Shown: positions 35,852 to 62,144 of the stretch, in pieces
Position numbering within the stretch: position 1 is the stretch's first letter
Layout of the letters: each line of letters begins with the position of its first letter
Assembly (NCBI GenBank): GCA_043803745.1
Contig: JAZDJS010000021.1
Location: 16,738-80,737 of the forward strand
DNA length: 64,000 nt
Origin: an archaeon
GTDB taxonomy: Archaea; SpSt-1190; DYHY01
Direction: 5' to 3'
Translations under genes and position numbers: made by a program
The notes under the pieces: model-generated
Seen by the model: the letters and a program-made list of their open reading frames with translations, nothing else
The model's database searches: none
Told to the model about the DNA's origin: nothing

Positions 35852-36029
35852 CCGTGCTCCCGACGGTTGAGTCATCTTCAGAGGACGAAATCTCGGGACG
35901 CGAGCGCGTTAGACCCGCCAGACGAAAAAGTGCGAGTGCTCCCGACGGTTGAGTCATCTTCAGAGGACGAAATCTCGGGACGCGAGCGCGTTAGACCCGC
36001 CAGACGAAAAAGTGCGAGTGCTCCCGACG
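35852..36029. repeat. Perfect tandem repeat of 2 x 82 bp plus a 13-nt third start. Each unit begins with the last 13 nt of tRNA-Glu (gtgctcccgacgg) followed by 69 nt of trailer.
   Basis: Units at 35852-35933 and 35934-36015 are identical. The third unit is the tRNA 3-prime end itself. Confidence 0.9.
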
Positions 36030-36091
36030 GGATTTGAACCCGTGTCTCGGGCTCGAGAAGCCCAGATCCTTGGCCGAGCTAGACGACAGGA
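36017..36091 (-). tRNA. tRNA-Glu (anticodon CTC)
   Basis: The reverse complement is GCTCCTG-TCGTCTAGCTCGGCCAAGGATC-TGGGC TTCTCGA GCCCG-AGAC-ACGGG TTCAAAT CCCGT-CGGGAGC-A. Confidence 0.85.
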
Positions 36092-36187
36092 GCTTGAGAA
36101 TCGGGTCTTTCTCCCCGTTTTAAACGTTTTCCATCGAGTTTCGCCCAACCCAAAAATCTTTTTAACCTCTGTTCTTCCGGTTAGGCC

Positions 36188-36305
36188 GGGTCCATAGCTC
36201 AGCCCGGTAGAGCGGCAGTCTTATATGACTGTGTTCTATACACAAAGGATAGACTAGGTCTGAGTCAGCTGTTGGTCATGGGTTCGAATCCCATTGGGCC
36301 CACCA
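36188..36305 (+). tRNA. Intron-containing tRNA (118 nt including the encoded CCA). The tentative mature anticodon loop is CTTATAA, giving anticodon UAU (tRNA-Ile2 type). The isotype is uncertain.
   Basis: GGGTCCA-TA-GCTC AGCCCGGTA GAGC-G-GCAGT CTTATA | 41-nt intron (contains the hairpin TGTGTTCTATACACA) | A-GCTGT-TGGTC-ATGGG TTCGAAT CCCAT-TGGGCCC-A-CCA. The acceptor has a G4:U pair. A GCCCC-TTCA-GGGGC hairpin follows immediately. Confidence 0.65.
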
Positions 36306-36365
36306 GCCCCTTCAGGGGCTGAAGAAATTCCCACAGCCAGCATTCCCTTTGCGCTCTGAGGGGCT

Positions 36366-36410
36366 CATTGGGCCCACCAGAGCCCGTTTTCTTTTCCGAA
36401 AGAAAAAGCC
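36366..36410 (+). repeat. Copy of the tRNA 3-prime end (cattgggcccacca) 74 bp downstream of the intron-containing tRNA, followed by the palindromic trailer (gcccgttttcttttccgaaagaaaaag)
   Basis: 14-nt exact copy at 36366-36379. The trailer at 36381-36410 is similar to the elements at 3176-3222 and 5463-5510. Confidence 0.7.
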
Positions 36411-36426: not shown

Positions 36427-37326
36427 TCATTGGAGCGGGAAATACCTGCAAAAGGCGCAGAGCTTTCCCGAGGTCGGCTCCCTGCCGCAGGAGGGACAGA
36501 GCCGCGTCTCCTTCCCGAGGAGGGGGGCAAAAACCGGCTGGCCCTTGGAAAGATAGCTCAAGTAGAATTTCAGCCTGAATCCCGGTTCCCTCTTTTCAGC
36601 TGAAGAGAGGATTGCTTGCCACTTTTCCGTCTTCGGCTCCTTTGAAAAATTGCATTTCTTCTTCAAGTAGGGGAGTTTGAATAGTTTCGCCCAGTTTGAA
36701 AGCTCCTCCTTCGAGAAGAGGCAGAGCGGCTTTACCTTCTTCCCGAATCCAGGCAAGAGGCCGGAAACAATGGGAGTTCTCCGGGAAAGAATGTCTGGAT
36801 TCCAGGAATATACGCCGCCGAAAATCGCGGCTGTTTCGTCGTCAAGGTGATGGCCGGTTGCGAACGGGATTCCGGATTCCCGCGCCTCCCGGTTCAGGAG
36901 GGCGTTCCTTATTTCGCTGCAGGTTGCGCAGGGGTTTCGCCCCGTTCTTGAAAGTATTTCCCCGAGGGATTTATCCGGCTTTAGCAGCTTCAACTCAACG
37001 CCGCAGAAGCCGGAAATTCTCTCCGCAGCTTTTCTCGATTTGACTGAGAAAGCCCCGTTGCCCAAATCAACATGGATTGCGCGGACATTGAAACCGGCAA
37101 GCTTGAGCGAGTGGCAGAGGACGGAGCTGTCAAGGCCTCCGGAAAGCGCGACAAGGAAGGAGTTTCCCATCTGGAAATTCTTGACAGTCCAGTTTATTCT
37201 CCGAAGGAACCATTCCTTGTAATGCTCCCTGCAAAGGTCGTATTTGTGAGCCGGGAGGTGGAAGATTGCCTTTTTCTTCGCCGGGGCGTTCTTCTTGATG
37301 CAGATTGTGCAGTAAGGTGAAGACAC
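36427..37326 (-). CDS. PP-loop ATP pyrophosphatase of the TtcA/NcsA (Ctu1-like) tRNA thiolation family
   Basis: SGGLDSSV PP-loop, N-terminal CxxC and C-terminal CPSCG..CAFC zinc/Fe-S cysteines. Confidence 0.6.
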   Translation of the reverse strand: MSSPYCTICIKKNAPAKKKAIFHLPAHKYDLCREHYKEWFLRRINWTVKNFQMGNSFLVALSGGLDSSVLCHSLKLAGFNVRAIHVDLGNGAFSVKSRKAAERISGFCGVELKLLKPDKSLGEILSRTGRNPCATCSEIRNALLNREARESGIPFATGHHLDDETAAIFGGVYSWNPDILSRRTPIVSGLLPGFGKKVKPLCLFSKEELSNWAKLFKLPYLKKKCNFSKEPKTEKWQAILSSAEKREPGFRLKFYLSYLSKGQPVFAPLLGKETRLCPSCGREPTSGKLCAFCRYFPLQ

Positions 37327-37437: not shown

Positions 37438-38271
37438 ATGTTCGAAGTTGCCCAAGCGCTTTATGAGTTCACCGTAGGGCCGATTATTGAGGGCCTGGGT
37501 GCTGCCAAGCAAGATTTAGATTTGTCTCAATTTGAGCTTGGCAAGGGGAATGTTCCGCAAATCCCGGCGCGGATTTCTGGAAGGCGGGGCGCTCCCGAAA
37601 GACCTGAAAGTTATCAGGCACTCCTTGATGCCGCTTTGAAAGTCGCATCTGGCCCAAAAGGCACACGGGTTGCTGGAAAGTACGTCAATCCCGAAAACCC
37701 GGACGGGCTTCCGCAAGGGTTCCACATTGCAAAGGTTTCCCAAGTGACTGCCAGCGTAAGAGAAGTTCCGGAACCGGGATATTTGTGGAATCGGCCGAAA
37801 ACACCAGTTCATTACGCGCAAGTCAAAATTGCAAGAAGGGGTGAACTGGATGTCGCATGGCTCGATAACTCTGCTTCCGATTTCTTCGAGGGCATGGTTG
37901 GAACACACAAATTCATTTTCGAAAAGTCCGAGCTAGGAGACCCCAAAATTTCAACTGACAACGCTATTGACAGGTATCACGGCATCTGCCGAACAAATTG
38001 CACTGTTCCGATACGGGTTGGTGGCGAAGAAATGGCGGCAATGCAGCTTTACCAGGAAAGCAACGGCAAACCCGTCTATTTGCGCCTTGCGATAGCTGGT
38101 CCTCTCGGAAATCCGACTGGGAAACGTGAGCTTTTGACGGAGTCTTTGTGCACGTTTGTTGCAGCAACCGGGGTTCTCTGGCAAGCTTGGCAGGAAAGCG
38201 AAAGCCTGAAAGAGTTCGAAAGATATGCCAACGCAGCTTTTTCGGGGAAACGCGCTAGGGCAAATTGTTAA
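37438..38271 (+). CDS. Hypothetical protein in a low-GC patch
   Basis: 277-aa ORF. The flanking 5-prime region is AT-rich. Confidence 0.4.
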   Translation: MFEVAQALYEFTVGPIIEGLGAAKQDLDLSQFELGKGNVPQIPARISGRRGAPERPESYQALLDAALKVASGPKGTRVAGKYVNPENPDGLPQGFHIAKVSQVTASVREVPEPGYLWNRPKTPVHYAQVKIARRGELDVAWLDNSASDFFEGMVGTHKFIFEKSELGDPKISTDNAIDRYHGICRTNCTVPIRVGGEEMAAMQLYQESNGKPVYLRLAIAGPLGNPTGKRELLTESLCTFVAATGVLWQAWQESESLKEFERYANAAFSGKRARANC

Positions 38272-38773: not shown

Positions 38774-39411
38774 GGTTGCTGCTGCTGAAGAACTTGGGAA
38801 GAAACCTGCTTTTTCAGGGCATCGATTTTCCTTCTCCTGACAACGAAAAATCCTGCGACTTGGAAACCTATTGTAGCTAATGCGAAAATAACCAGCAGGA
38901 ATTCGACGAGGTTCGGGCGGGACAAGTCAAGGCCGTTCGCCTTGAAAATGAAATGATAGAGGGAGAGCGCAAAGGCAAGATAGTTGAACCTTTGGATTCC
39001 TTTCCAGACGGGAGTGCCGAGGAGCTTCGTCGCCCAGTCAGCTGAGGTCAGGGCGAGGGGAGTGAAGATTGCAAGGGCGATTGTCCCTGCCGTGAAAGGC
39101 AAATAGGAAAAAAAGAGGGAAAAATCCCAGCCAAGCTGGAAAGAAAGGGAAAGGATCCCGTGGAAAAGGACGAGGAAGAATGAAGCAATCCCGACCGCGC
39201 GCCTCGGCTCGACAAGCTGTGCGAACCTCTGGGGCCAGATTACCGCAAGGGGCCCAATCAGGAGGGTCACCGTAATCAGGAAGAACCCTGAGAGGGCGAG
39301 GAACCTTGTTCCCGAGGAAACCCCTGCCGGGGCCGGAACGGTAGAATTGTAGAACGCAATTGCGGCAAGGGCGAGGAAAAGGTAGAGGAAAAGCTGGCTT
39401 GTCTTGTTCAT
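38770..39411 (-). CDS. Polytopic membrane protein, possibly with a ferric-reductase-like (MsrQ/YedZ-type) heme-binding TM domain
   Basis: 213 aa with about 6 TM helices and conserved His in FHGILS and LYHFIF. Confidence 0.4.
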   Translation of the reverse strand: MNKTSQLFLYLFLALAAIAFYNSTVPAPAGVSSGTRFLALSGFFLITVTLLIGPLAVIWPQRFAQLVEPRRAVGIASFFLVLFHGILSLSFQLGWDFSLFFSYLPFTAGTIALAIFTPLALTSADWATKLLGTPVWKGIQRFNYLAFALSLYHFIFKANGLDLSRPNLVEFLLVIFALATIGFQVAGFFVVRRRKIDALKKQVSSQVLQQQQP

Positions 39412-42400
39412 TCTTTTTCCCCTGCAGGTTCTCTTGAGGACTCCGACCCTTCCCGGGAGAAACCGATTTCCGCGGCCCCGAGCCCGAGGTCGCCGAGGGA
39501 AACGCTGTCGCAGAAAACTTTCGAGCCACTCATTATCCTCACAAGCTCCATTTCCTGCGCCCCGACCTTCTCTTTCATAGCGGGGAGGAAGGGCGTTATC
39601 AGCTGCTCGGCCTTTTCGTCAAGACCGAGCTCAAGGACTATTTTCTGGGAAACCGTGAAACCGGAATCCTTCCGCATTGCCTGAATCTTGCGCGTGATTT
39701 CCCGGGAAGCTGCCTCGCCAAGCAGCGCGTCGTCAAGCTTCTTGTCAACGAAAACGACGAAGCCCGCTTCCTCGCCTCTCGCGTAATCGCCTGCGGGCTC
39801 CTCCGGGGAAACCTCGATTTTCTTGCAGTTCGCAAGGCGGGAGATAATTTCCCCCGCGAGGGAAATTGCCCTGGAAATGCCCTCTTCCTTGGAAACCACG
39901 ATTGCCTTCGCAACTGGATATCTGAGTTTTATTCCGGCAGCGTTCCGCGCAGCCATCAGAGCCTCAATTACTTTCTGGGCTGTGAAGACGGCCTCCTCAA
40001 GGGCTGAGTCGATTTTCCCTTCCTCGCATTCCGGCCAGGAACAGAGATGAATCGACTCTGAAACGGAGGAATCAAAGCTCTTCTCAAAGTTCTGGTAGAT
40101 TTCCTCGGAAATCATTGGGACGATTGGCGCCGAAAGCCGCAGTAGCTTTGAAAGAACCTCGTAAAGGGTCTGGTATGCGGCAAGCTTGTCCTCCCCCTGC
40201 GCGCCGGGCCAAGTCCTCTCGCGGATCAGCTTGATGTATGTCCGAGAAAGGTCGTTCACGAAAAACTTTTGGAGTGTCTCGGAAGTCTCCTCAATCTTGT
40301 AGTTGTCGAATGCTTCCGTAAGCCCTCGCACAAGGCTGTTGAGCCTTGAGAGAATCCATTTGTCCTCGATTTTCTTCTCGACCTGAGCCCCGCCGGGCCT
40401 GAATCCGTCAACGGACATGTAGCCGTGGGCGAAAGAATAGCTGTTGTAGAGAATCCGGAGATTGTTGAAAGCGTCCCTGACATATCTTTCGGAATATGAC
40501 ATGTCTTCCCCCGCCTTTGCGGAGGAGATGAAGAACATCCGGAGGCTGTCCGCCCCGTATTTCGGAAGGACTTCCTCGGGGGAAACGAAATTGCCAAGGG
40601 ATTTCGAGAATTTCCGCCCAATCTCGTCGTTAACGAATCCGTGCATGTAAACCGCCTTGTAGGGCGCTCGCCCGGTTGCAAGGACGCCGAGGCACATCAG
40701 GCTGTTGAACCAGCCGCGTATCTGGTCCTTGCCCTCGATTATGAAGTCGACAGGATAGGAGTCCGAAAGAACGTTCGGGTTTTCCGCCGGGAAGCGCTGG
40801 GCCGCCCAGGAGGCGGAACCGGCTTCTCCCCAGACATCGAAAATATCTGGCACGCGCGTCATGGCGTCCCGCTTGCATTTCTTGCACGCGAACTTTATCT
40901 CGTCAATCCAGGGCCTGTGCAAATCCTTCGGCTGGGTCGGGAGCTCTTTCGCGGAACCGACAACCTCTATTTCCCCGCAGTATTCGCATTTCCATATTGG
41001 GAGGGGAACGCCCCAGTATCTCTGGCGGGAGATGCACCAGTCCTGGAGGTTATCGAGCCAGGAATCGAACCAGGAAGAACCCGCCCAGTCCGGGACCCAC
41101 TTGACCTGCTTGTTCGCCTCGCGCATCTTCTCCTTGAGGCTTGCGGTTGAGAAGAACCACTGAGTCGTCGCAAGGAATATCAGGGGCGTCTTGCATCTCC
41201 AGCAAATCGGGTATTCGTGCGTGAATTTCTCGGTTGAGAAAAGCAGGCCTTTCTTCTCAAGATCCTCGATTATTTTCGGGTCGGCGTCCCTCTTGGCAAT
41301 GAATCCGTGATATTTGCCGGCCTCCTCGGTGAATGCTCCGGAAAGCTTGATCGGGCAGAACATGTCAAGGCCCTCCTTCTTCCCAACCTCAAAATCCTCG
41401 GGACCGGTTCCCGGAGCCAGGTGGACGCATCCGGTTCCGGCATCAAGATGGACATATTCCTTCGAGAGGACGACTGAATGGTTCTTATTGTCCTTCTCAG
41501 CAAACTTCCTCTGGGCGGGGATCTCGTCAATCAGGGGGTGGACGTACTTCAGACCGGCAAGCTCGGAGCCGGGAACCTCCTTCACGATTTTGTATCCGCG
41601 CCCGGCAAGTATCTTTTCCGCAAGCTCCTTTGCAAGTATCAGGGTCTCCCTCGGGGTCTCCCTCGGGGTCTCCCCGGGGAGCTCCCCGCCGCACTCGGCA
41701 TAGACATACTGGAAATCCGGGTTTACCATCACCCCCATGTTTGTCGGGAGCGTCCAAGGGGTTGTCGTCCATATCAGTATGAATGTTTTCTCGGCTCCGG
41801 CGACCGGGAACTTCACGAATATCGAGTTCTCAGTTATGTTCGCGTATTCCTGCTCGTGCTTGGCAAGGGCGGTTTCGCAGCGGGGGCATGCCGTAAGGAC
41901 CTTCGGCCCGTTGACAAGGTAGTTGCTGAGATATGCCTGCTTTATTCCCCACCAGACACCCTCGATGTAATAGTTCTCGATTGTCAGGTAGGGATTCTCC
42001 CAATCCATCCAGACCCCGAGGCGGATGAACTGGCCGTTCATTATCGCCAGGTTCTTCTTCGCGAAATTCCGGCAGTAGTTCACGAAATTCCCGACGCCGT
42101 ATTCCTCAATCTGCTTTTTGGATTTTATCCCGATTTCCTTCTCGACCTTGAGCTCGACCGGGAGCCCGTGCATGTCGTATCCCGGGGTGTCATTTACCGA
42201 AAAGCCCCGCATTGCCTTGTAGCGGAGGACCGAATCCTTCATTATCTTGTTCCAGGCGGTTCCGAGGTGTATTGCGCCGGTCGGATAGGGGGGTCCGTCA
42301 ATGAACGTGAACCTAGGCTTGCCGGACTGACCGGCCTTCCATTTTGAATAAATCGACTTCTCTTTCCAGAACGAAAGAATCCGCTCTTCTGTTGGAACTA

Positions 42401-42437
42401 TTTCGAACGCGCCCCCGCTACCATCGCCAAAGACCAT
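39408..42437 (-). CDS. ileS: Isoleucyl-tRNA synthetase
   Basis: 1009 aa. PPYPTGAIHLGTAWNKI (HIGH-type) and KFSKSLGN (KMSKS). It carries an ETPRETPRETP tandem insertion. Confidence 0.9.
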   Translation of the reverse strand: MVFGDGSGGAFEIVPTEERILSFWKEKSIYSKWKAGQSGKPRFTFIDGPPYPTGAIHLGTAWNKIMKDSVLRYKAMRGFSVNDTPGYDMHGLPVELKVEKEIGIKSKKQIEEYGVGNFVNYCRNFAKKNLAIMNGQFIRLGVWMDWENPYLTIENYYIEGVWWGIKQAYLSNYLVNGPKVLTACPRCETALAKHEQEYANITENSIFVKFPVAGAEKTFILIWTTTPWTLPTNMGVMVNPDFQYVYAECGGELPGETPRETPRETLILAKELAEKILAGRGYKIVKEVPGSELAGLKYVHPLIDEIPAQRKFAEKDNKNHSVVLSKEYVHLDAGTGCVHLAPGTGPEDFEVGKKEGLDMFCPIKLSGAFTEEAGKYHGFIAKRDADPKIIEDLEKKGLLFSTEKFTHEYPICWRCKTPLIFLATTQWFFSTASLKEKMREANKQVKWVPDWAGSSWFDSWLDNLQDWCISRQRYWGVPLPIWKCEYCGEIEVVGSAKELPTQPKDLHRPWIDEIKFACKKCKRDAMTRVPDIFDVWGEAGSASWAAQRFPAENPNVLSDSYPVDFIIEGKDQIRGWFNSLMCLGVLATGRAPYKAVYMHGFVNDEIGRKFSKSLGNFVSPEEVLPKYGADSLRMFFISSAKAGEDMSYSERYVRDAFNNLRILYNSYSFAHGYMSVDGFRPGGAQVEKKIEDKWILSRLNSLVRGLTEAFDNYKIEETSETLQKFFVNDLSRTYIKLIRERTWPGAQGEDKLAAYQTLYEVLSKLLRLSAPIVPMISEEIYQNFEKSFDSSVSESIHLCSWPECEEGKIDSALEEAVFTAQKVIEALMAARNAAGIKLRYPVAKAIVVSKEEGISRAISLAGEIISRLANCKKIEVSPEEPAGDYARGEEAGFVVFVDKKLDDALLGEAASREITRKIQAMRKDSGFTVSQKIVLELGLDEKAEQLITPFLPAMKEKVGAQEMELVRIMSGSKVFCDSVSLGDLGLGAAEIGFSREGSESSREPAGEKE

Positions 42438-42689: not shown

Positions 42690-44555
42690 GTGATGCGCGC
42701 GGGGAAACGTGGCGGAAGAAGGGGAATTGACGCGATTCTAACGACAATTCTCCTGGTCCTGCTTGTGATTGCCTCGGTCGGGGGCGCCTGGTTTTTCTTC
42801 TCGAAAATGCAGGGCAAGTTCCAGAGCTCCGGCGAGGGCAGCGCGGAGGAGCAGATAGAAACCACCGGAGGAATGCTCTCAATTGACTCGGCATACTCGA
42901 GGGAAGTCTACATAAGGAACGTCGGCAGGACTACCCTGCGAACCTTCGACCTTTACCTTAACGAGGAAAAACTCTTCCTGACAACGAGGCCGGAACCGCT
43001 CACCTCCGGGCAGTCCGGAATACTCAAGATTGCAATCGAGCTCAAGAAGGGCGACTGGGTCAAGGTAATCTCGGACAAGAGCGTCATCGCCTCCTACAAG
43101 GTTGAGCGGACGAAGACCGCCCGCTGCGGGAACCTGCGCTGCGAATTCCCCTCCGAGGAAAGCTGCACAAGCTGCCCCGAGGACTGCGGATATTGCACGG
43201 ACTTTGTTTCCGCAAGAATGTATCCGAAAAACACCCAGGTCGGGGGGACTCTGACAATAGAGCTTTCCCTCGAGGCGAAGATGCTTGTTGAATCGGCAAT
43301 AGCAAGAATGAGCCTTCCGAACAGGACTGTCGAGGAAATCCCGATGAGGAACGCGGGCGGGCTTTGGAGCGTCACAAGAGTCTCGGACCAGACGGGCCTT
43401 TATGTTGCCGATGTCAGGGTCAAGGAGAAGAACGGGCCCTTCCTTCCGGATGTACGGGCAGGAATTTCAAGCACATCCGGATGGGGAAGCAACGACTGGA
43501 AGAGACGGAAGGCGATAATGGCAAGCGAAGGAGTCGGCTTTGAGAGGGTTTTCGAATATGTCAGGGCTAACTTCACCGGGCTCGTTCTCTCTTCCGGAAG
43601 CTGCAGGGAAGTCAAGATAACGGACATTTTCGGCAACCCGAGGCCGAGCCAGGTCATTGACGGGGGAAGCGACTGGTGCGAAATGATTGCCCCGCTTGAC
43701 GCGCTCGAGGGTGTTTCCGACCAGATAATCGGGTTCATCTATTATGACAACCCCAGTCCGCCGGGGCCTGGCGCGCCAACCGACCTGCTTCCTTTCGACA
43801 ATTCGACTAAATGCGCGGAAAGCGGGAATCTCAGGCTCTGCTTCGGCGGGGCGGATGACGGCGGGATGCGCTCCCTTTCCTCGTCAATTGTCGGAAAGGA
43901 CACCAATCTCCTTTCGGCGCACACCCGGGACAGCAAATACTACCGGAGCGGAATACAGCCGCAGATGGACTATCCGATTGGGCTCGACCTCCTCTGGTGC
44001 TCCAATTACACGAGCATAGGCTCCCCGGAAATAATTGTCGGAGGGGGGCTTTACCAGCGGGTCAGGTATGACCTAGGGGTGACCTGCTCCGGAACCGAAT
44101 ACAACTACCGGATTTTCCTCGACTTTTATTCGAACAAGAGCTTCTACGACTTTTCGGCGCAGACGCTCTCGGAAATAGAAACTGGAAAGGGCGGGGAGAG
44201 CGTCCTTTTCGCTCCCAACTGGAACATGGATGCGGTCTATTTCACGCAGGAAGGAACGACCTGCAGCGGCGACGCATGCTTCTACTGGAGCGACCTCCTG
44301 AAATCCCCGGCAGACCTTGGGATAGGAGCGACTCCGATTGAGAATTCGCAATACGTTCTTTTCGAATCCCTCACGCCCCCGCACACCTACAAAGTTCCGG
44401 AAGGCAGCTCAATTCCCCCGGGGGAGCTGCTCTACCGCGTGAGAACGTTCCTGGCGACAAGGGATGACATTTTCTTCAACGCAATATCAGTTCCGCCAAT
44501 TGCAAGGAACCCGATTTCGAGTTCAGTTTACTTGGGTGAGGAGGAAATAGCATGA
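42690..44555 (+). CDS. Large secreted/surface protein with a class III (archaeal type IV pilin-like) signal peptide
   Basis: N-terminus MMRAGKRGGRRG|IDAILTTILLVLLVIASVGG has a basic region then Gly then a hydrophobic helix. 621 aa, Cys pairs, several N-x-S/T sites. Confidence 0.55.
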   Translation: MMRAGKRGGRRGIDAILTTILLVLLVIASVGGAWFFFSKMQGKFQSSGEGSAEEQIETTGGMLSIDSAYSREVYIRNVGRTTLRTFDLYLNEEKLFLTTRPEPLTSGQSGILKIAIELKKGDWVKVISDKSVIASYKVERTKTARCGNLRCEFPSEESCTSCPEDCGYCTDFVSARMYPKNTQVGGTLTIELSLEAKMLVESAIARMSLPNRTVEEIPMRNAGGLWSVTRVSDQTGLYVADVRVKEKNGPFLPDVRAGISSTSGWGSNDWKRRKAIMASEGVGFERVFEYVRANFTGLVLSSGSCREVKITDIFGNPRPSQVIDGGSDWCEMIAPLDALEGVSDQIIGFIYYDNPSPPGPGAPTDLLPFDNSTKCAESGNLRLCFGGADDGGMRSLSSSIVGKDTNLLSAHTRDSKYYRSGIQPQMDYPIGLDLLWCSNYTSIGSPEIIVGGGLYQRVRYDLGVTCSGTEYNYRIFLDFYSNKSFYDFSAQTLSEIETGKGGESVLFAPNWNMDAVYFTQEGTTCSGDACFYWSDLLKSPADLGIGATPIENSQYVLFESLTPPHTYKVPEGSSIPPGELLYRVRTFLATRDDIFFNAISVPPIARNPISSSVYLGEEEIA

Positions 44556-46453
44556 AGGTCCGTGAGCGGGGACGGATAAGGAAGGGCCTTGCGCCCGTTG
44601 CGATAATGCTGATCCTGCTTCTGACGCTTTCCATTGCCCTCTCGGCATGGCTTGTGATCAGCGGGCTCAATAACCAGGCAAAAACGCAGGCGGAAGCTGA
44701 TGCCGCGGCGGCAAGGAAGAAAATATCGACGGGAATTGCAATTGACGGGATAGACAGCAACCGGCTTTTCATAAGGAATTCTGGCAAGGGAAGGATAAAC
44801 GACGTAAGCGTTTATGTTGACAACGTGCCAATAGAGATCGTCGAGCAGTTCAGGGGGCTTGACGCTGGGCAGAGCGGGGAAATCAGCCTTGAGAAGGCCC
44901 CCACTTTCGGGGACCACAGGATAAAGATAATTGCAAACTCGGCGGTCCAGGACGAAATAACAGTTTCCGGGCGGGCGCTCTCGGGATTTGACGCAAGAAT
45001 CCCGATTAGGGTCACAAACCAGTATCCGCGGGACTATCGCTCAGTCTGGGCTTTCGGAGGCTCCGGAAAGAATGTGACGATTTCAATCCCGGTTTCAAGC
45101 CGCACATCGGTGGTCCTTGATTCCGAAGGGCTCGAATATCCGAGCAGGGTAAAGACGAGCTGGTATGACCCGGCGTGGAAAAAGCGCAGGCCGCTCGTTT
45201 TCTCGGACCTCTCCGGCGTCGGTTTCTCCGGGGAGCCGGTCGAATTCACGCTTTCCAGCCTCGCCCTTTCAACGGGGCGCTGCGAAGAAGTCAGGATTAC
45301 CGATGATTCCGGGGCGCTCGTCAGGTCGGATTTCGTTTCCGGTTCCGGAGCAACGTGCAAATTCAGGATGCAGTTTTTCTCCCCTCCGAACGGGTCAACG
45401 AGATATTACGCATATTATGCGAATCCTACGGCGGAAATTCAGAATGCCGAAACCGGGATAAACGTCTCGGAAATGGGCGACCGGCTCTGCCTCGACAACG
45501 GGAAGCTTCTTGTCTGCCTTGGACTTGACAAGGGGGGCGTCTTGAACATTTCCGAGTCCGAAATGCAGAACCTGCTTGCCGAAAACGTCGGTCCGGACGG
45601 GAAATATTCCGGTCTTGCCCCTTCGGTGAAATACAAGGAGGGTTGGGACTACTCCGTCTGCTCGCCATACAGATTCAGCGAGTATGCAATCACGGAAGGC
45701 TCGAAGGATCATGCGGGAAAAACCAATTCAACGAGCGGCGCAAGCAAGAAAATCGGCGTGAAGGTTTCCTCGACAAGAACAATTGTGGAATACGTTTTCG
45801 GGACAACCTGCTCCGGCACGGAATACCTGTACAAATACCTCCTTACGATTTACCCGGATACCCTCTTTTACGACATCGAAATCCAGAACCTCGCCCAGAT
45901 TGATTTCGGGGGGAGCCTGCAGAACTTCTTCGCCCAGGCAAATTGGGCGAAGGTTTACCCGAGCGGGAACTCCGTTGTTGCCGACGGGAACTATTCCGCA
46001 TACTGGAACGAAAAGATTCCAGACGGAACCGGCATAGGCGTTGTTGCGCTCGAGCTTTCCCCGCGGGCAATTGCCGGCTTCCTAAGACCGCCAAGCTTCA
46101 TCGTTGTCGAGGATTCCGAACCCCTTCAGGCCGGGACGATAATTTCCGCAAGGACGGTCCTTTCGAAGAACTACGCGGGTGCCGAGGAAACCCGGCGCGC
46201 CTTCATCAGAAGCCAGGGGGGTTACATAAATATTTCCGAGGGCGGCGACGAGGGCATCCCAGTAAACACGACTGCAACGGTTGATTTCGCGCTTGCGATC
46301 GACAAGGGCGCCTCCCGGAGCGTTTATTTCTATTACGCTGACAGGGGACCTGAGGGCGCTTCACGGGAAAAGCCGGAACATCCGAGTTCCATTTCCGGAT
46401 ATGCCCTGGAAGCCTCCTTGGTCGGAAAGGAAGAGCGCCTCTCTTCCAGGTGA
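44552..46453 (+). CDS. Paralogous large surface protein with a class III signal peptide
   Basis: N-terminus MKVRERGRIRKG|LAPVAIMLILLLTLSIALSAW. Shares blocks with the upstream gene (TCSGTEY.Y...FYD, C.EV.ITD). Its start overlaps the upstream stop by 4 bp. Confidence 0.55.
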   Translation: MKVRERGRIRKGLAPVAIMLILLLTLSIALSAWLVISGLNNQAKTQAEADAAAARKKISTGIAIDGIDSNRLFIRNSGKGRINDVSVYVDNVPIEIVEQFRGLDAGQSGEISLEKAPTFGDHRIKIIANSAVQDEITVSGRALSGFDARIPIRVTNQYPRDYRSVWAFGGSGKNVTISIPVSSRTSVVLDSEGLEYPSRVKTSWYDPAWKKRRPLVFSDLSGVGFSGEPVEFTLSSLALSTGRCEEVRITDDSGALVRSDFVSGSGATCKFRMQFFSPPNGSTRYYAYYANPTAEIQNAETGINVSEMGDRLCLDNGKLLVCLGLDKGGVLNISESEMQNLLAENVGPDGKYSGLAPSVKYKEGWDYSVCSPYRFSEYAITEGSKDHAGKTNSTSGASKKIGVKVSSTRTIVEYVFGTTCSGTEYLYKYLLTIYPDTLFYDIEIQNLAQIDFGGSLQNFFAQANWAKVYPSGNSVVADGNYSAYWNEKIPDGTGIGVVALELSPRAIAGFLRPPSFIVVEDSEPLQAGTIISARTVLSKNYAGAEETRRAFIRSQGGYINISEGGDEGIPVNTTATVDFALAIDKGASRSVYFYYADRGPEGASREKPEHPSSISGYALEASLVGKEERLSSR

Positions 46454-58653: not shown

Positions 58654-59538
58654 TCACTTCATTTCCAAGTGACCCATTATCTTGAAAATCAGCCGCGCGG
58701 CAAGGAAGGTCGTGATATTGTTCTCGTCGGGGATTACCTCGTTGATGTCAAAGCCGACTATTTCCGCGCTGGTGCAGACCGTCTTGATTATCTCAAGCCC
58801 GTCCTGATAGGAAAGGCCTCCTGGCTCGGGGGTTCCGGTTCCGGGGGCAACCGCGGGGTCGAACCCGTCAATGTCAATTGAAAAGTAGACTTTCTTCCCG
58901 GAAATCTCCCTTGCGAATTTCTTAAGGATTTCCGAAATGCCTCTCTTCCTGATTTCGTCCGAAAAGTGCAGGGTTATCTTGCCTGGGTTCTTCTCCGCAA
59001 GCTCGGCTTCCTCCGCCGAGATTGCCCGCACCCCGAATTCCACCAATCTCTTCCCGGAATCGAAAGCCCGCTTCATTACGCAGGCGTGGCTGAACTTGCT
59101 TCCCTCGTAGGAATCGCGCAAATCCCCGTGGGCGTCGATTGAGACCACGGTAACGTCCTTCGGGAAAGCCCCGATTGCGCCAATCGAGACCGAATGGTCG
59201 CCCCCAAGGACAACCGGAATCTTCCCTTCATCCAGTATTTGGGAGACCGTTTCCCGCACACGCCTGCAGTTTTCCTCCGGGCTTGCCCCGGCAGTTTCGA
59301 TCGGGGGCAGGGTTTCTATTGCAGGGCAAATTTCCCTACCAAATTCCAGGTCGAAAAGCTCGACCTGCTTCGATGCCTCGATTATTGCGGCAGGCCCTTT
59401 CTTTGAGCCCGAACGGTAGCTTGCGGTTGAATCGAACGGAACGGAAATAACTGAAAAGCGCGGTTTTCGCGTTCCCTCAGTTTCGATTCCGAGAAATCCG
59501 AAGGGCGTTCCCCAAGAGGTTTTCTTTGCCATTGGCAT
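58654..59538 (-). CDS. speB: Agmatinase / arginase-family ureohydrolase
   Basis: VVLGGDHSVSIGAI, SIDAHGDL, DIDGFDPAVAPGTGTPEPGGLS. Confidence 0.8.
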   Translation of the reverse strand: MPMAKKTSWGTPFGFLGIETEGTRKPRFSVISVPFDSTASYRSGSKKGPAAIIEASKQVELFDLEFGREICPAIETLPPIETAGASPEENCRRVRETVSQILDEGKIPVVLGGDHSVSIGAIGAFPKDVTVVSIDAHGDLRDSYEGSKFSHACVMKRAFDSGKRLVEFGVRAISAEEAELAEKNPGKITLHFSDEIRKRGISEILKKFAREISGKKVYFSIDIDGFDPAVAPGTGTPEPGGLSYQDGLEIIKTVCTSAEIVGFDINEVIPDENNITTFLAARLIFKIMGHLEMK

Positions 59539-59634
59539 AGCAAATAGCCAAAATTTAAAAAAATACCCCTTAGGCGGGCATTCCGGGTGTTTGCGGAAAG
59601 CTTAAAAGGAGATTACTGTTCAGAAGTGTTGCAC

Positions 59635-60276
59635 ATGAAGGAACTCGAGAAGGAGGTTGCGTCTGGTGGGGGACCCGAGGGGGGACCCGAGGGGGGACCC
59701 GGTGGGGAACCTTGCGAGTGCACTTGCAAGGGCAATAAGGAGCCCGAGGAATCCGGAGCCAAAGTTACGCTTCAGTCGAAAGAAGAGGTTGGCAAGGAAC
59801 TTCGGTTGCTTCGGCTTGCAGCGGATTTCGAGAACTACAAGAAGCGGACCGCGAAGGAATTCGCAGACCAGAGGAATTCCGGCAAGAAGGACCTGCTTGA
59901 AAAGCTAATCTCCCTTTCGGACACCTTCGAGCTTGCGCTCCATTCAGTGAAGAACGCAAGCCCCGAGGTTCTGAAGGGTTTCCTAATGATACAGAACCAG
60001 CTCAAAGCAATACTCTCCGGGGAAGGCGCCGAACCTTTCGGAACTTCTGGCGAGCATTTCGACCCGTTCAGGCACGAGGCTGTCGAATTCGTCGCTTCCG
60101 CGGGGGGCGCGGAAGAGGGAACTGTCTCGGAGGTAATCCAGAAGGGATACCTTTTCAAGGGGAACCTGCTCAGGCCCTGTGCGGTCAAGGTATTCAAGAA
60201 CGCTACTCATCAGACAGGAGATGTCAAAGAAGATGCGGCACCCACGTCTGAACCTGAAATGAAACAAATGGAGTGA
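59635..60276 (+). CDS. grpE: GrpE nucleotide exchange factor
   Basis: [17 protein letters not shown]. It has an unusual N-terminal [13 protein letters not shown] + CECTCKG segment. Confidence 0.8.
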
Positions 60277-62144
60277 AGGAAAACATGACAAAAATAATCG
60301 GAATTGATCTGGGAACATCGAACTCGGCTGCCGCTGTTGTCGAAGGCGGGCGGCCGGTGATAATCCCTTCGGCTGAAGGCTCTACCGCCGCGGGGAAGAC
60401 CGTCCCCTCGGTCGTCGCCTTTGCAAAGGACGGGACGCTTCTTGTCGGCGAGCCGGCTCGGAGGCAGGCTGCGGTCAATCCGGAAAGAACTGTCCTTGCA
60501 GTGAAGAGAAAGATGGGTCGAGTTGAGAAAATAGCCGTCGGGGGAAAGGAATATTCCCCGCAGGAGATTTCCGCCTTCCTCCTCCAGAAGATGAAGAAGG
60601 ATGCTGAAGCGTACCTTGGCGGACCCGTGACAAAGGCGGTGATAACCGTTCCGGCATATTTCGACGACAACCAGAGGCAGGCAACGAAGGATGCGGGGAC
60701 GATTGCGGGCCTGGAAGTGGTGAGAATAGTCAACGAACCGACTGCGGCAGCCCTTGCATTCGGTCTTGACAAATCCGGAAAGGATTCCAAGATAATGGTT
60801 TTCGACCTCGGGGGCGGAACGCTTGACGTCACCATAATGGAGATGGGCGGGGGCGTCTTCGAAGTCAAATCGACCAGCGGGGACACGCAGCTCGGCGGGA
60901 CAGACATGGACCGGGTGATTGTCGACTACATCGTTTCCGAGTTCAAGGCTGCCGAGGGAATTGATATTTCCAAGGACAGGATGGCGAGCCAAAGGATACG
61001 GGAGGCTGCTGAAAAGGCTAAAATCGAGCTTTCCACGACAATGTCAACCGACTTGAACATTCCGTTCGTCTCGGCAACTGCCGAGGGACCGAAACATCTC
61101 GCAATGACTATCACGCGCGCGAAACTCGAGGAACTCGTCAACCCGATTGTCGAAAGGTGCCGCAAGCCAGTCAAACAGGCACTCTCGGATGCGGGGCTCC
61201 AGCCAAGCGAAATCGACAAGGTGCTCCTTGTTGGCGGACCCACGAGGATGCCGATTGTCCAGAAGCTTGTCGAGGAGCTTGTCGGGAAGAAAATAGAAAG
61301 GGGAGTCGACCCGATGGAATGCGTTGCGCTCGGAGCGGCAATCCAGGGCGCGATTCTTTCCGGGGAAGTGAAGGATGTCGTTCTCCTCGACGTTACGCCG
61401 CTCTCGCTCGGAATCGAAACCCTTGGCGGGGTTACTACGCGCCTGATTGACAGGAACACCGCAATCCCGGTGAAGAAGAGCCAGACCTTCTCGACAGCGG
61501 CAGACATGCAGACGAGCGTTGACATACACGTCCTCCAGGGGGAGAGGCCGATGGCGGCAGATAACGTCGAGCTCGGGAACTTTTCGCTGATAGGGATTCC
61601 GCCGGCGCCGAGGGGGATACCTAAGATAGAGGTTTCCTTCGACATTGACGCAAGCGGGATAATGCATGTCTCGGCAAAGGATCTCGGGACAGGAAGGGAG
61701 CAGAAAATCCAGATTACCGCGCCGCACAAGCTTTCCAAGGACGAGATTGAAAAGAAGGTCAAGGATGCCGAGGCTTTCGCCGATGCCGACAAGAAGCGCA
61801 TTGAGGAAGTCGAGCTTTACAACGAAGCTGATGCGTTCATCTATACCGCTGAAAAGACGCTTGCGGATGTCGGGGACAAGCTTTCCGAAGACAAGAAAAC
61901 CGAAGTCAAGAAATGGATTGGAGAGCTAAAGGAAGAGGTCCAGAAGAAGGATTCCGTGAAAGTGAAGGAGAAGCTTGACGCGCTCAGGAAGGCGGTCTCA
62001 GCCGCAAGCGAAGCGCTTTACAAGGACAAGGACGGAGCGCCGCCCGGAGGAGAGGGGTTCACGAAGGAGCCCTCTGGCGGCGGACCTGAAAACGAGGAAA
62101 CGTTCGACGCCGAATTCTCCAAGAAGAAAGAGGATGGAAAGTAA
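60273..62144 (+). CDS. dnaK: Hsp70 chaperone DnaK
   Basis: [42 protein letters not shown]-less C-terminus. Confidence 0.95.

Follow-up and report, generated by a model that had tools for sequence, protein, structure and literature searches.

The window, by which we mean the whole 64,000-nt stretch of archaeal DNA analysed here, carries an isoleucine tRNA gene interrupted within its anticodon loop, and this raises the question of how a little-known archaeon reads AUA. The codon is in frequent use: in 21 window genes it makes up 27.9% of isoleucine codons (19.8 per 1000, above AUG), so a dedicated AUA reader is needed. The archaeal tRNA-Ile2(CAU) has the same task as the window tRNA (reading AUA as isoleucine and not AUG) and needs C34 and TiaS, which makes agmatidine (Ikeuchi 2010 and Mandal 2010, cited in PMC3575796), whereas the window tRNA has U34. 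With U at position 34 there is no C34-to-agmatidine conversion, and the window tRNA cannot be a TiaS substrate. We conclude that the gene is probably (probability of about 0.9) a functional archaeal minor isoleucine tRNA with a UAU anticodon and a bulge–helix–bulge (BHB) intron spliced at position 37/38. Its parts are as follows.

36188–36305, forward strand: complete tRNA-Ile(UAU) gene, precursor 118 nt and mature tRNA 77 nt (Rfam, ARAGORN -i and a stem-by-stem check)
36188–36225, forward strand: exon 1, tRNA positions 1–37, with the 5′ strand of the acceptor stem, the D arm, GCAGU and C32 U33 U34 A35 U36 A37 (sequence, Rfam alignment and splice-register test)
36222–36224, forward strand: anticodon U34 A35 U36 (TAT), wholly inside exon 1 (ARAGORN -i and register test)
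36226–36266, forward strand: intron, 41 nt, at the canonical position 37/38 (BHB geometry)
36267–36305, forward strand: exon 2, with A38, GCUGU, the variable loop UGGUC, the T arm, the 3′ strand of the acceptor stem, A73 and CCA
36303–36305, forward strand: encoded CCA, within the 118-nt gene

[quoted passage not shown] The gene was absent from the calls made on the window in ARAGORN default mode and the intron option was needed; the analysis provides the correct annotation for one tRNA gene missed by default bacterial-mode tRNA finders. Positions 36188–36305 of the forward strand read GGGTCCATAGCTCAGCCCGGTAGAGCGGCAGTCTTATA TGACTGTGTTCTATACACAAAGGATAGACTAGGTCTGAGTC AGCTGTTGGTCATGGGTTCGAATCCCATTGGGCCCACCA. 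Checked pair by pair, the acceptor stem has 7 bp with one G:U (U4:G69), the D stem (4 bp) and T stem (5 bp) are paired throughout, and the anticodon stem GCAGU/GCUGU has 5 bp, including G27:U43 and U31:G39. All universal tRNA features are in place (U8, A14, G18G19, U33, GTTCGAATC, A73 and CCA), and the mature anticodon loop CUUAUAA has U33, a purine at 37, A38 and the anticodon UAU. A73 and the GGGYCC/GGGCCC acceptor stem are common to the window tRNA and at least 97 listed archaeal homologues, a likeness of sequence, and presumably resemble those of archaeal tRNA-Ile(GAU). In tRNAscan-SE nomenclature the UAU species is tRNA-Ile3(UAU) (PMC8450103), which displaces the name tRNA-Ile2 used in an earlier sequence-only reading of this DNA. 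That reading is otherwise borne out in its main lines: an intron-containing tRNA with a spliced UAU anticodon, a 118-nt gene with paired acceptor, D and T arms (the acceptor stem having its one G:U), a stem with G:U pairs at both ends, and a 41-nt insert after position 37 that leaves the loop CUUAUAA, now fixed by the BHB register.

Archaeal pre-tRNAs with a BHB motif are cleaved by the splicing endonuclease EndA and ligated by RtcB. The standard motif has a 4-bp central helix and two 3-nt bulges, each cut after its second base; by this geometry, the last anticodon-stem pair is 31:39 and position 32 pairs with the intron base 3 nt before the 3′ splice site. The window precursor has such a motif in canonical hBHBh′ form, with an outer helix of 5–6 bp, a central helix (H) paired at 4/4 positions, an inner helix of 4 bp and the bulges UA/U and UC/A (strokes marking the predicted cuts).

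36220–36223, forward strand: 5′ strand of the central helix, C32 U33 U34 A35, pairing as C:G, U:A, U:G and A:U with 36261–36264
36261–36264, forward strand: UGAG, the 3′ side of the central helix, at intron positions −6 to −3 (pair check and homologue alignment)
36224–36226, forward strand: 5′ bulge, U36 A37 followed by U, predicted cleavage after 36225 (geometry rule)
36265–36267, forward strand: 3′ bulge, U C followed by A38, predicted cleavage after 36266 (geometry rule)
36227–36230, forward strand: 5′ strand of the inner helix h′, GACU, pairing with GGUC at 36257–36260
36257–36260, forward strand: 3′ strand of the inner helix h′, GGUC (pair check and homologue alignment)

By a hand estimate, the chance that the H and inner helices would both pair in a register fixed by the exons is ~3 × 10−4. 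With the 5-bp stem fixed, seven excisions of 41 nt give back a 7-nt loop, and all were compared; 37/38 was the sole register to keep the motif (6 bp in the outer helix, 4/4 in H and 4 bp in the inner helix). In the six others the outer helix was absent and H had 0–3 pairs, and C fell at position 37 in five of them. The seven registers gave the anticodons UAU (four), AGU (two) and UGU (one). Each admissible register with a purine at position 37 has U at 34, and not the C34 of the agmatidine-dependent tRNA-Ile2(CAU). The sequence-only reading had named a different intron boundary yielding another anticodon, for example CAU, as a result that would undo it. Such a boundary, with the gene then being a conventional tRNA-Ile2 or tRNA-Met, has next to no chance of being correct. 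Boundary calls can differ (ARAGORN -i places an intron of equal length 1 nt further 3′), but this shifted boundary likewise gives UAU, none of the seven registers gives CAU, and away from 37/38 either position 37 becomes a pyrimidine or all helices are lost. Because exon 1 contains the entire anticodon, the identity of the latter does not hinge on the exact 3′ intron boundary. The doubt that no clean canonical BHB could be confirmed also falls away, given that all helices are paired at 37/38.

Folded in isolation, the unconstrained precursor has a minimum free energy (MFE) of −42.1 kcal/mol in a structure that is not a cloverleaf and that uses an alternative hairpin between positions 29–32 and the 5′ end of the intron, as against −36.1 kcal/mol for the constrained cloverleaf with BHB. 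MFE structures other than the cloverleaf are the usual outcome of nearest-neighbour rules for tRNAs and BHBs; we did not count this one against the BHB structure, on which the fold is uninformative and for which the explicit pair checks were used. The hairpin chosen by RNAfold has the loop UUAUAU and competes with the anticodon stem. Its intron side (i2–i5, GRCY) is complementary to tRNA positions 29–32 in 74–94% of 82 listed homologues, and some double-sided changes occur in the corresponding segments (36216–36220 with 36227–36231 in the window; alignment columns 2–6 with 13–17). This complementarity may do no more than follow from the near-palindromic form of the BHB; alternatively, it may reflect a real second conformation of the precursor. 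The intron was also read for box C/D elements, a candidate that we rejected: CUGA alone was seen, as part of the BHB helix, and there was no box C. No EndA domain was found among the ORFs of the 64-kb window scanned with Pfam and NCBIfam.

The species-representative genomes of GTDB were scanned with a pattern composed of an isoleucine-type D arm, the loop CTTATA, an insertion of 14–44 nt and a T loop, which covers intron-containing genes only. At least 119 loci matched, of which at least 97 are archaeal; 22 of those listed are bacterial. The archaeal loci are labelled Woesearchaeota, Pacearchaeota, Micrarchaeota/Anstonellales, Iainarchaeum, Nanoarchaeota/Nanopusillus, Aenigmatarchaeota, Altiarchaeota and Undinarchaeota, mostly of DPANN type, with one metagenome-assembled genome (MAG) labelled Thermoprotei, several labelled Methanobacteriota or Methanosarcinales, and unclassified archaea further represented among the matches listed. 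All 97 of the at least 97 archaeal matches listed have a 5/5 anticodon stem and an intron exactly at 37/38, whereas a perfect 4-bp H helix is found in 82/97, A38 in 86/97 and the U31:G39 wobble in 65/97. The frequency of U31:G39 among these listed homologues indicates that the ‘weak’ anticodon stem, for which the parse had earlier been called tentative, is a trait of the family, and the BHB itself is canonical. The scan thus shows the UAU solution to be widespread among DPANN-type archaea, and the statement that tRNA-Ile(UAU) is rare cannot be maintained when at least 97 archaeal species representatives carry an intron-containing gene of the same architecture. Because the same gene is spread across many mostly DPANN-labelled lineages, it is of limited use as a lineage marker: across these at least 97 loci it marks a broad set of lineages and not a single one.

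For covariation, a 35-column alignment was built from 82 distinct sequences of the anticodon arm and intron ends of the listed homologues. The BHB structure pairs 90.1% of cells in these 82 sequences, compared with 22–47% when the partner is slid by 1–3 columns, a test that is partly circular given that the 5/5 anticodon stem was a selection criterion and the 5′ strand of the H helix was fixed by the CTTATA pattern. The inner helix and the 3′ strand of the H helix lie outside this circularity. The central H helix is paired in 96% of cells over the 82 distinct listed homologues and the first two pairs of the inner helix covary across them; double-sided changes occur at eight pairs, and the observed covariation score was reached by 0 of 500 shuffles of the 82 sequences.

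Close relatives allowed the gene to be compared in its chromosomal setting. In two loci, L001 (GCA_964492285.1) and L002, tRNA-Ile(UAU) stands beside a divergent tRNA-Glu(CUC) and close to the isoleucyl-tRNA synthetase (IleRS) gene, ileS. The window IleRS (MFH0961619.1) is 78% identical to its homologue in L002, 72% to that in L001 and 70% to that in L003. A further locus, L060 (DYHY01000009.1), is syntenic with the window for Cdc6 (65%), an ArsB-like protein (67%), tRNA-Glu and tRNA-Ile; its GenBank label, ‘Candidatus Micrarchaeum sp. DR5_63_9’, is the sole one within the window's clade, and among the matches listed L060 is the labelled locus most closely related to that of the window. The searches with IleRS and flap endonuclease FEN1 as single genes gave best matches in a five-member clade (61–78% identity), followed at ~50% by a mixed tier of Asgard, DPANN, Thermoproteota and Methanobacteriota, and they place the window's clade in no firm phylum. 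The introns of L001, L002 and L060 are 43–44 nt long (44 nt in L001 and L002) and keep the BHB; in L001 and L002 the inner-helix strand is GGCU for GACU in the window, an A:U to G:U change that retains pairing.

These comparisons bear on whether the gene could be a decaying, non-functional pseudogene, which we regard as very improbable. Two features could be read in that way, namely the G:U pairs at both ends of the anticodon stem and a 15-nt copy of the tRNA 3′ end that lies 74 nt downstream and could mark a rearrangement. The stem GCAGU/GCUGU recurs, however, in identical form in L024, L025, L060 and L108 (labelled Micrarchaeota or Anstonellaceae, among the matches listed), its U31:G39 pair is the common state noted above, and the universal tRNA features are all intact. 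In addition, the exons in L002 are identical to those of the window, and those of L001 and L060 differ by a single base (in the T loop and D loop, respectively), while the neighbouring proteins of the three genomes have diverged to 62–78% identity, which argues for a functional gene.

The flanks of the tRNA contain candidate signals and repeats.

36157–36165, forward strand: candidate archaeal TATA box TCTTTTTAA, A/T-rich and centred ~26 nt upstream of the mature 5′ end
36387–36395, forward strand: candidate transcription stop, the oligo-T tract TTTTCTTTT, after the second copy of the last 15 nt of the tRNA
36018–36093, reverse strand: tRNA-Glu(CUC), divergent from tRNA-Ile

The putative TCTTTTTAA box and the oligo-T tract are consistent with archaeal transcription signals; a sigma-70 promoter scan, irrelevant here, found nothing. 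The last 15 nt of tRNA-Ile (CATTGGGCCCACCAG, including CCA), at 36292–36306, are repeated exactly at 36366–36380 after a 59-nt spacer that opens with a small hairpin (AGCCCCTTCAGGGGCT). The relatives have neither the 15-nt repeat nor an encoded CCA and read GGGCCCACTT... instead. This repeat could have arisen through a small insertion that duplicated its target, or could be a scar of integration or excision. Downstream of tRNA-Glu(CUC), at 35854–36030, an 82-bp unit is perfectly repeated in tandem, in ~2.2 copies. The unit consists of 69 nt plus the last 13 nt of tRNA-Glu, which form the end of each unit, with GTGCTCCCGACGG (forward strand) at 35854, 35936 and 36018; absent from L001, L002 and L060, these copies could be a real tandem duplication, remnants of att sites or an assembly artefact.

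Att-like direct repeats at the 3′ ends of both tRNA-Ile and tRNA-Glu are what might be expected had the tRNA been brought in by a mobile element that integrates at or near tRNA genes, as is a stretch of ~1.9 kb (a PP-loop gene and an ORF) between the tRNA and the cupin and ferric-reductase genes that is absent in L001 and L002. Against this origin, to which we give very little weight, no integrase was seen nearby, and the tRNA-Glu/tRNA-Ile pair is syntenic in L001, L002 and L060 together with Cdc6, the ArsB-like gene, ferric reductase and ileS, indicating that the tRNA itself belongs to the chromosome and was inherited vertically. The first of the two genes in the ~1.9-kb stretch adjoins the 3′ side of the tRNA, and the second is the ORF at 37438–38271.

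36427–37326, reverse strand: PP-loop ATPase related to the tRNA 2-thiolases TtuA and NcsA (TtuA model, E = 1 × 10−46, 159 bits against a cut-off of 450 bits)

We considered this ATPase as a tRNA-linked U34 thiolase and rejected the idea, given its absence from that place in L001 and L002 and the presence of a homologue near only 1 of 97 listed loci.

The preferred reading, a functional tRNA-Ile(UAU) with a BHB intron, has precedents. The ARMAN-2 pre-tRNA-Ile(UAU) has a 25-nt intron at 37/38 with a strict hBHBh′ motif and is cleaved in vitro (Fujishima et al. 2011, PMC3239211), and the ARMAN-2, -4 and -5 genomes are without TiaS and tRNA-Ile(CAU) (PMC3239211). ARMAN-2 (Candidatus Micrarchaeum acidiphilum), ARMAN-4 and ARMAN-5 share with the window the UAU anticodon, the single 37/38 intron and the strict hBHBh′ motif; in every structural feature as predicted, the window gene is an ARMAN-type tRNA-Ile(UAU) gene. 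It differs from that of ARMAN-2 in the length of the intron (41 nt versus 25 nt). [quoted passage not shown] Outside archaea, Mycoplasma mobile is presented as reading AUA through a UAU-anticodon tRNA-Ile without wobble modification (Taniguchi et al. 2013, PMC3575796). This prokaryote, which is without a C34-modifying enzyme, resembles the window in using UAU for AUA; unlike the window tRNA, its tRNA is bacterial and intron-free, and its IleRS is of bacterial type and not comparable with the archaeal/eukaryotic-type enzyme of the window.

The tRNA might also be functional and yet redundant, in a genome that has TiaS and tRNA-Ile2(CAU) as well. Agmatine is the TiaS substrate and many archaeal members of the arginase family are agmatinases; the window encodes a protein of this family, so agmatine metabolism may exist, and the protein, being possibly an agmatinase, has a loose bearing on agmatine availability.

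58654–59538, reverse strand: arginase-family (agmatinase-like) protein (PF00491, 237 bits)

We nevertheless think redundancy distinctly unlikely. Neither Rfam nor ARAGORN (in default and intron modes) found a tRNA(CAU) in the 64-kb window, a small fraction of the genome, and its ~60 ORFs gave no TiaS-like Pfam or NCBIfam match. Moreover, in N. equitans, K. cryptofilum and ARMAN-2, -4 and -5, tRNA-Ile(UAU) accompanies the absence of TiaS and tRNA-Ile(CAU) (PMC3239211, PMC8450103). A literature search on TiaS or agmatidine in DPANN or Micrarchaeota found nothing useful.

If the gene is a functional tRNA-Ile(UAU), it would be transcribed as a 118-nt precursor in which C32–A35 and the 3′ portion of the 41-nt intron base-pair, forming the canonical BHB. 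The splicing endonuclease would then cut within both 3-nt bulges, on the 3′ side of A37 and on the 5′ side of A38, and the ligase would join the exons into a product whose loop, CUUAUAA, is closed by GCAGU/GCUGU. Charged by IleRS, encoded 3 kb away, this mature tRNA would read AUA, a frequently used codon, through a U34:A pair. Splicing, charging by IleRS, any modification of U34, the avoidance of AUG and the replacement (rather than supplementation) of TiaS and tRNA-Ile(CAU) are steps that we infer. Such a tRNA would tell how this archaeon reads the codon for 28% of its isoleucines, as counted in the 21 window genes.

How U34 is kept from reading AUG finds a possible parallel in yeast, in which the intron of the cytosolic tRNA-Ile(UAU) is required for pseudouridylation by Pus1 at positions 34 and 36 and, as in the window, starts 1 nt 3′ of the anticodon and pairs with the anticodon region (PMC4090602). 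The yeast tRNA shares the task of reading AUA and rejecting AUG, and the pairing of the window intron with U34 and A35 in the BHB helix might offer a route to intron-dependent modification, as in eukaryotes. For archaeal tRNA-Ile(UAU), we know of no intron-dependent pseudouridylation of U34 or U36 and of no enzyme for it. It is conceivable, if rather doubtful, that the intron is needed for an anticodon modification that prevents reading of AUG and that in several lineages the tRNA and its synthetase form a linked AUA-decoding module.

39408–42437, reverse strand: ileS (TIGR00392, 898 bits), 3.1 kb from tRNA-Ile

In the window's clade (the window, L001 and L002), ileS and the tRNA are 1–3 kb apart. 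In at least six other, otherwise unrelated archaeal loci (L006, L061, L107, L112, L038 and L066), ileS lies within 70–230 nt of tRNA-Ile(UAU). Four Iainarchaeum-type loci listed have the tRNA 70–210 nt upstream of ileS on the same strand; in the Altiarchaeota-labelled L038 the tRNA is 130 nt downstream of ileS, and in L066 the two are divergent. By a rough estimate, with loci that are not phylogenetically independent, such adjacency is far above the ~1% expected for an 8-kb slice of a 1-Mb genome.

The mechanism itself, a UAU anticodon instead of an agmatidine-modified CAU together with a canonical BHB intron, is already documented, and one further instance changes little. A dedicated study may be merited by the pattern across at least 97 species, with its near-invariant intron position, U31:G39 and recurrent ileS linkage; its question would be the way in which U34 avoids AUG.

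Several other features of the window were recorded. Upstream of ileS, two adjacent ORFs of 621 and 633 amino acids (42690–44555 and 44552–46453, both on the forward strand) gave no Pfam or NCBIfam match, and ORFs of like size and position occur in L001 (628 and 634 amino acids) and L003; of the ORFs scanned in the window, about half had no family match. A grpE (59587–60276) and dnaK (60273–62144) pair occupies 59587–62144 on the forward strand of this archaeal MAG; the Hsp70 systems of archaea are usually seen as having been acquired from bacteria. Antisense across this pair, ARAGORN -i called a ‘tRNA-Lys(ttt)’ with a 355-nt intron (60014–60463, reverse strand); there was no Rfam tRNA match, and the call is almost certainly spurious, a product of the intron mode.

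The scan also met a bacterial gene that is unrelated to the window gene. At least 20 Actinomyces genomes carry a conserved tRNA-like gene of ~92 nt with an isoleucine-type body and two successive anticodon-like hairpins, CGAG-CUUAUAC-CUCG (UAU) and then GUGC-CUGAUAA-GCAC (GAU), as exemplified by GCCCCCATAGCTCAGCGGTTAGAGCAGCGAGCTTATACCTCGTGTCGTGCCTGATAAGCACAAGGTCCTGGGTTCGAATCCCAGTGGGGGTACCA (loci L004, L011, L012, L019, L022, L031, L062–L064, L079, L080, L082, L089, L091, L093, L098, L102, L116, L118 and L122).
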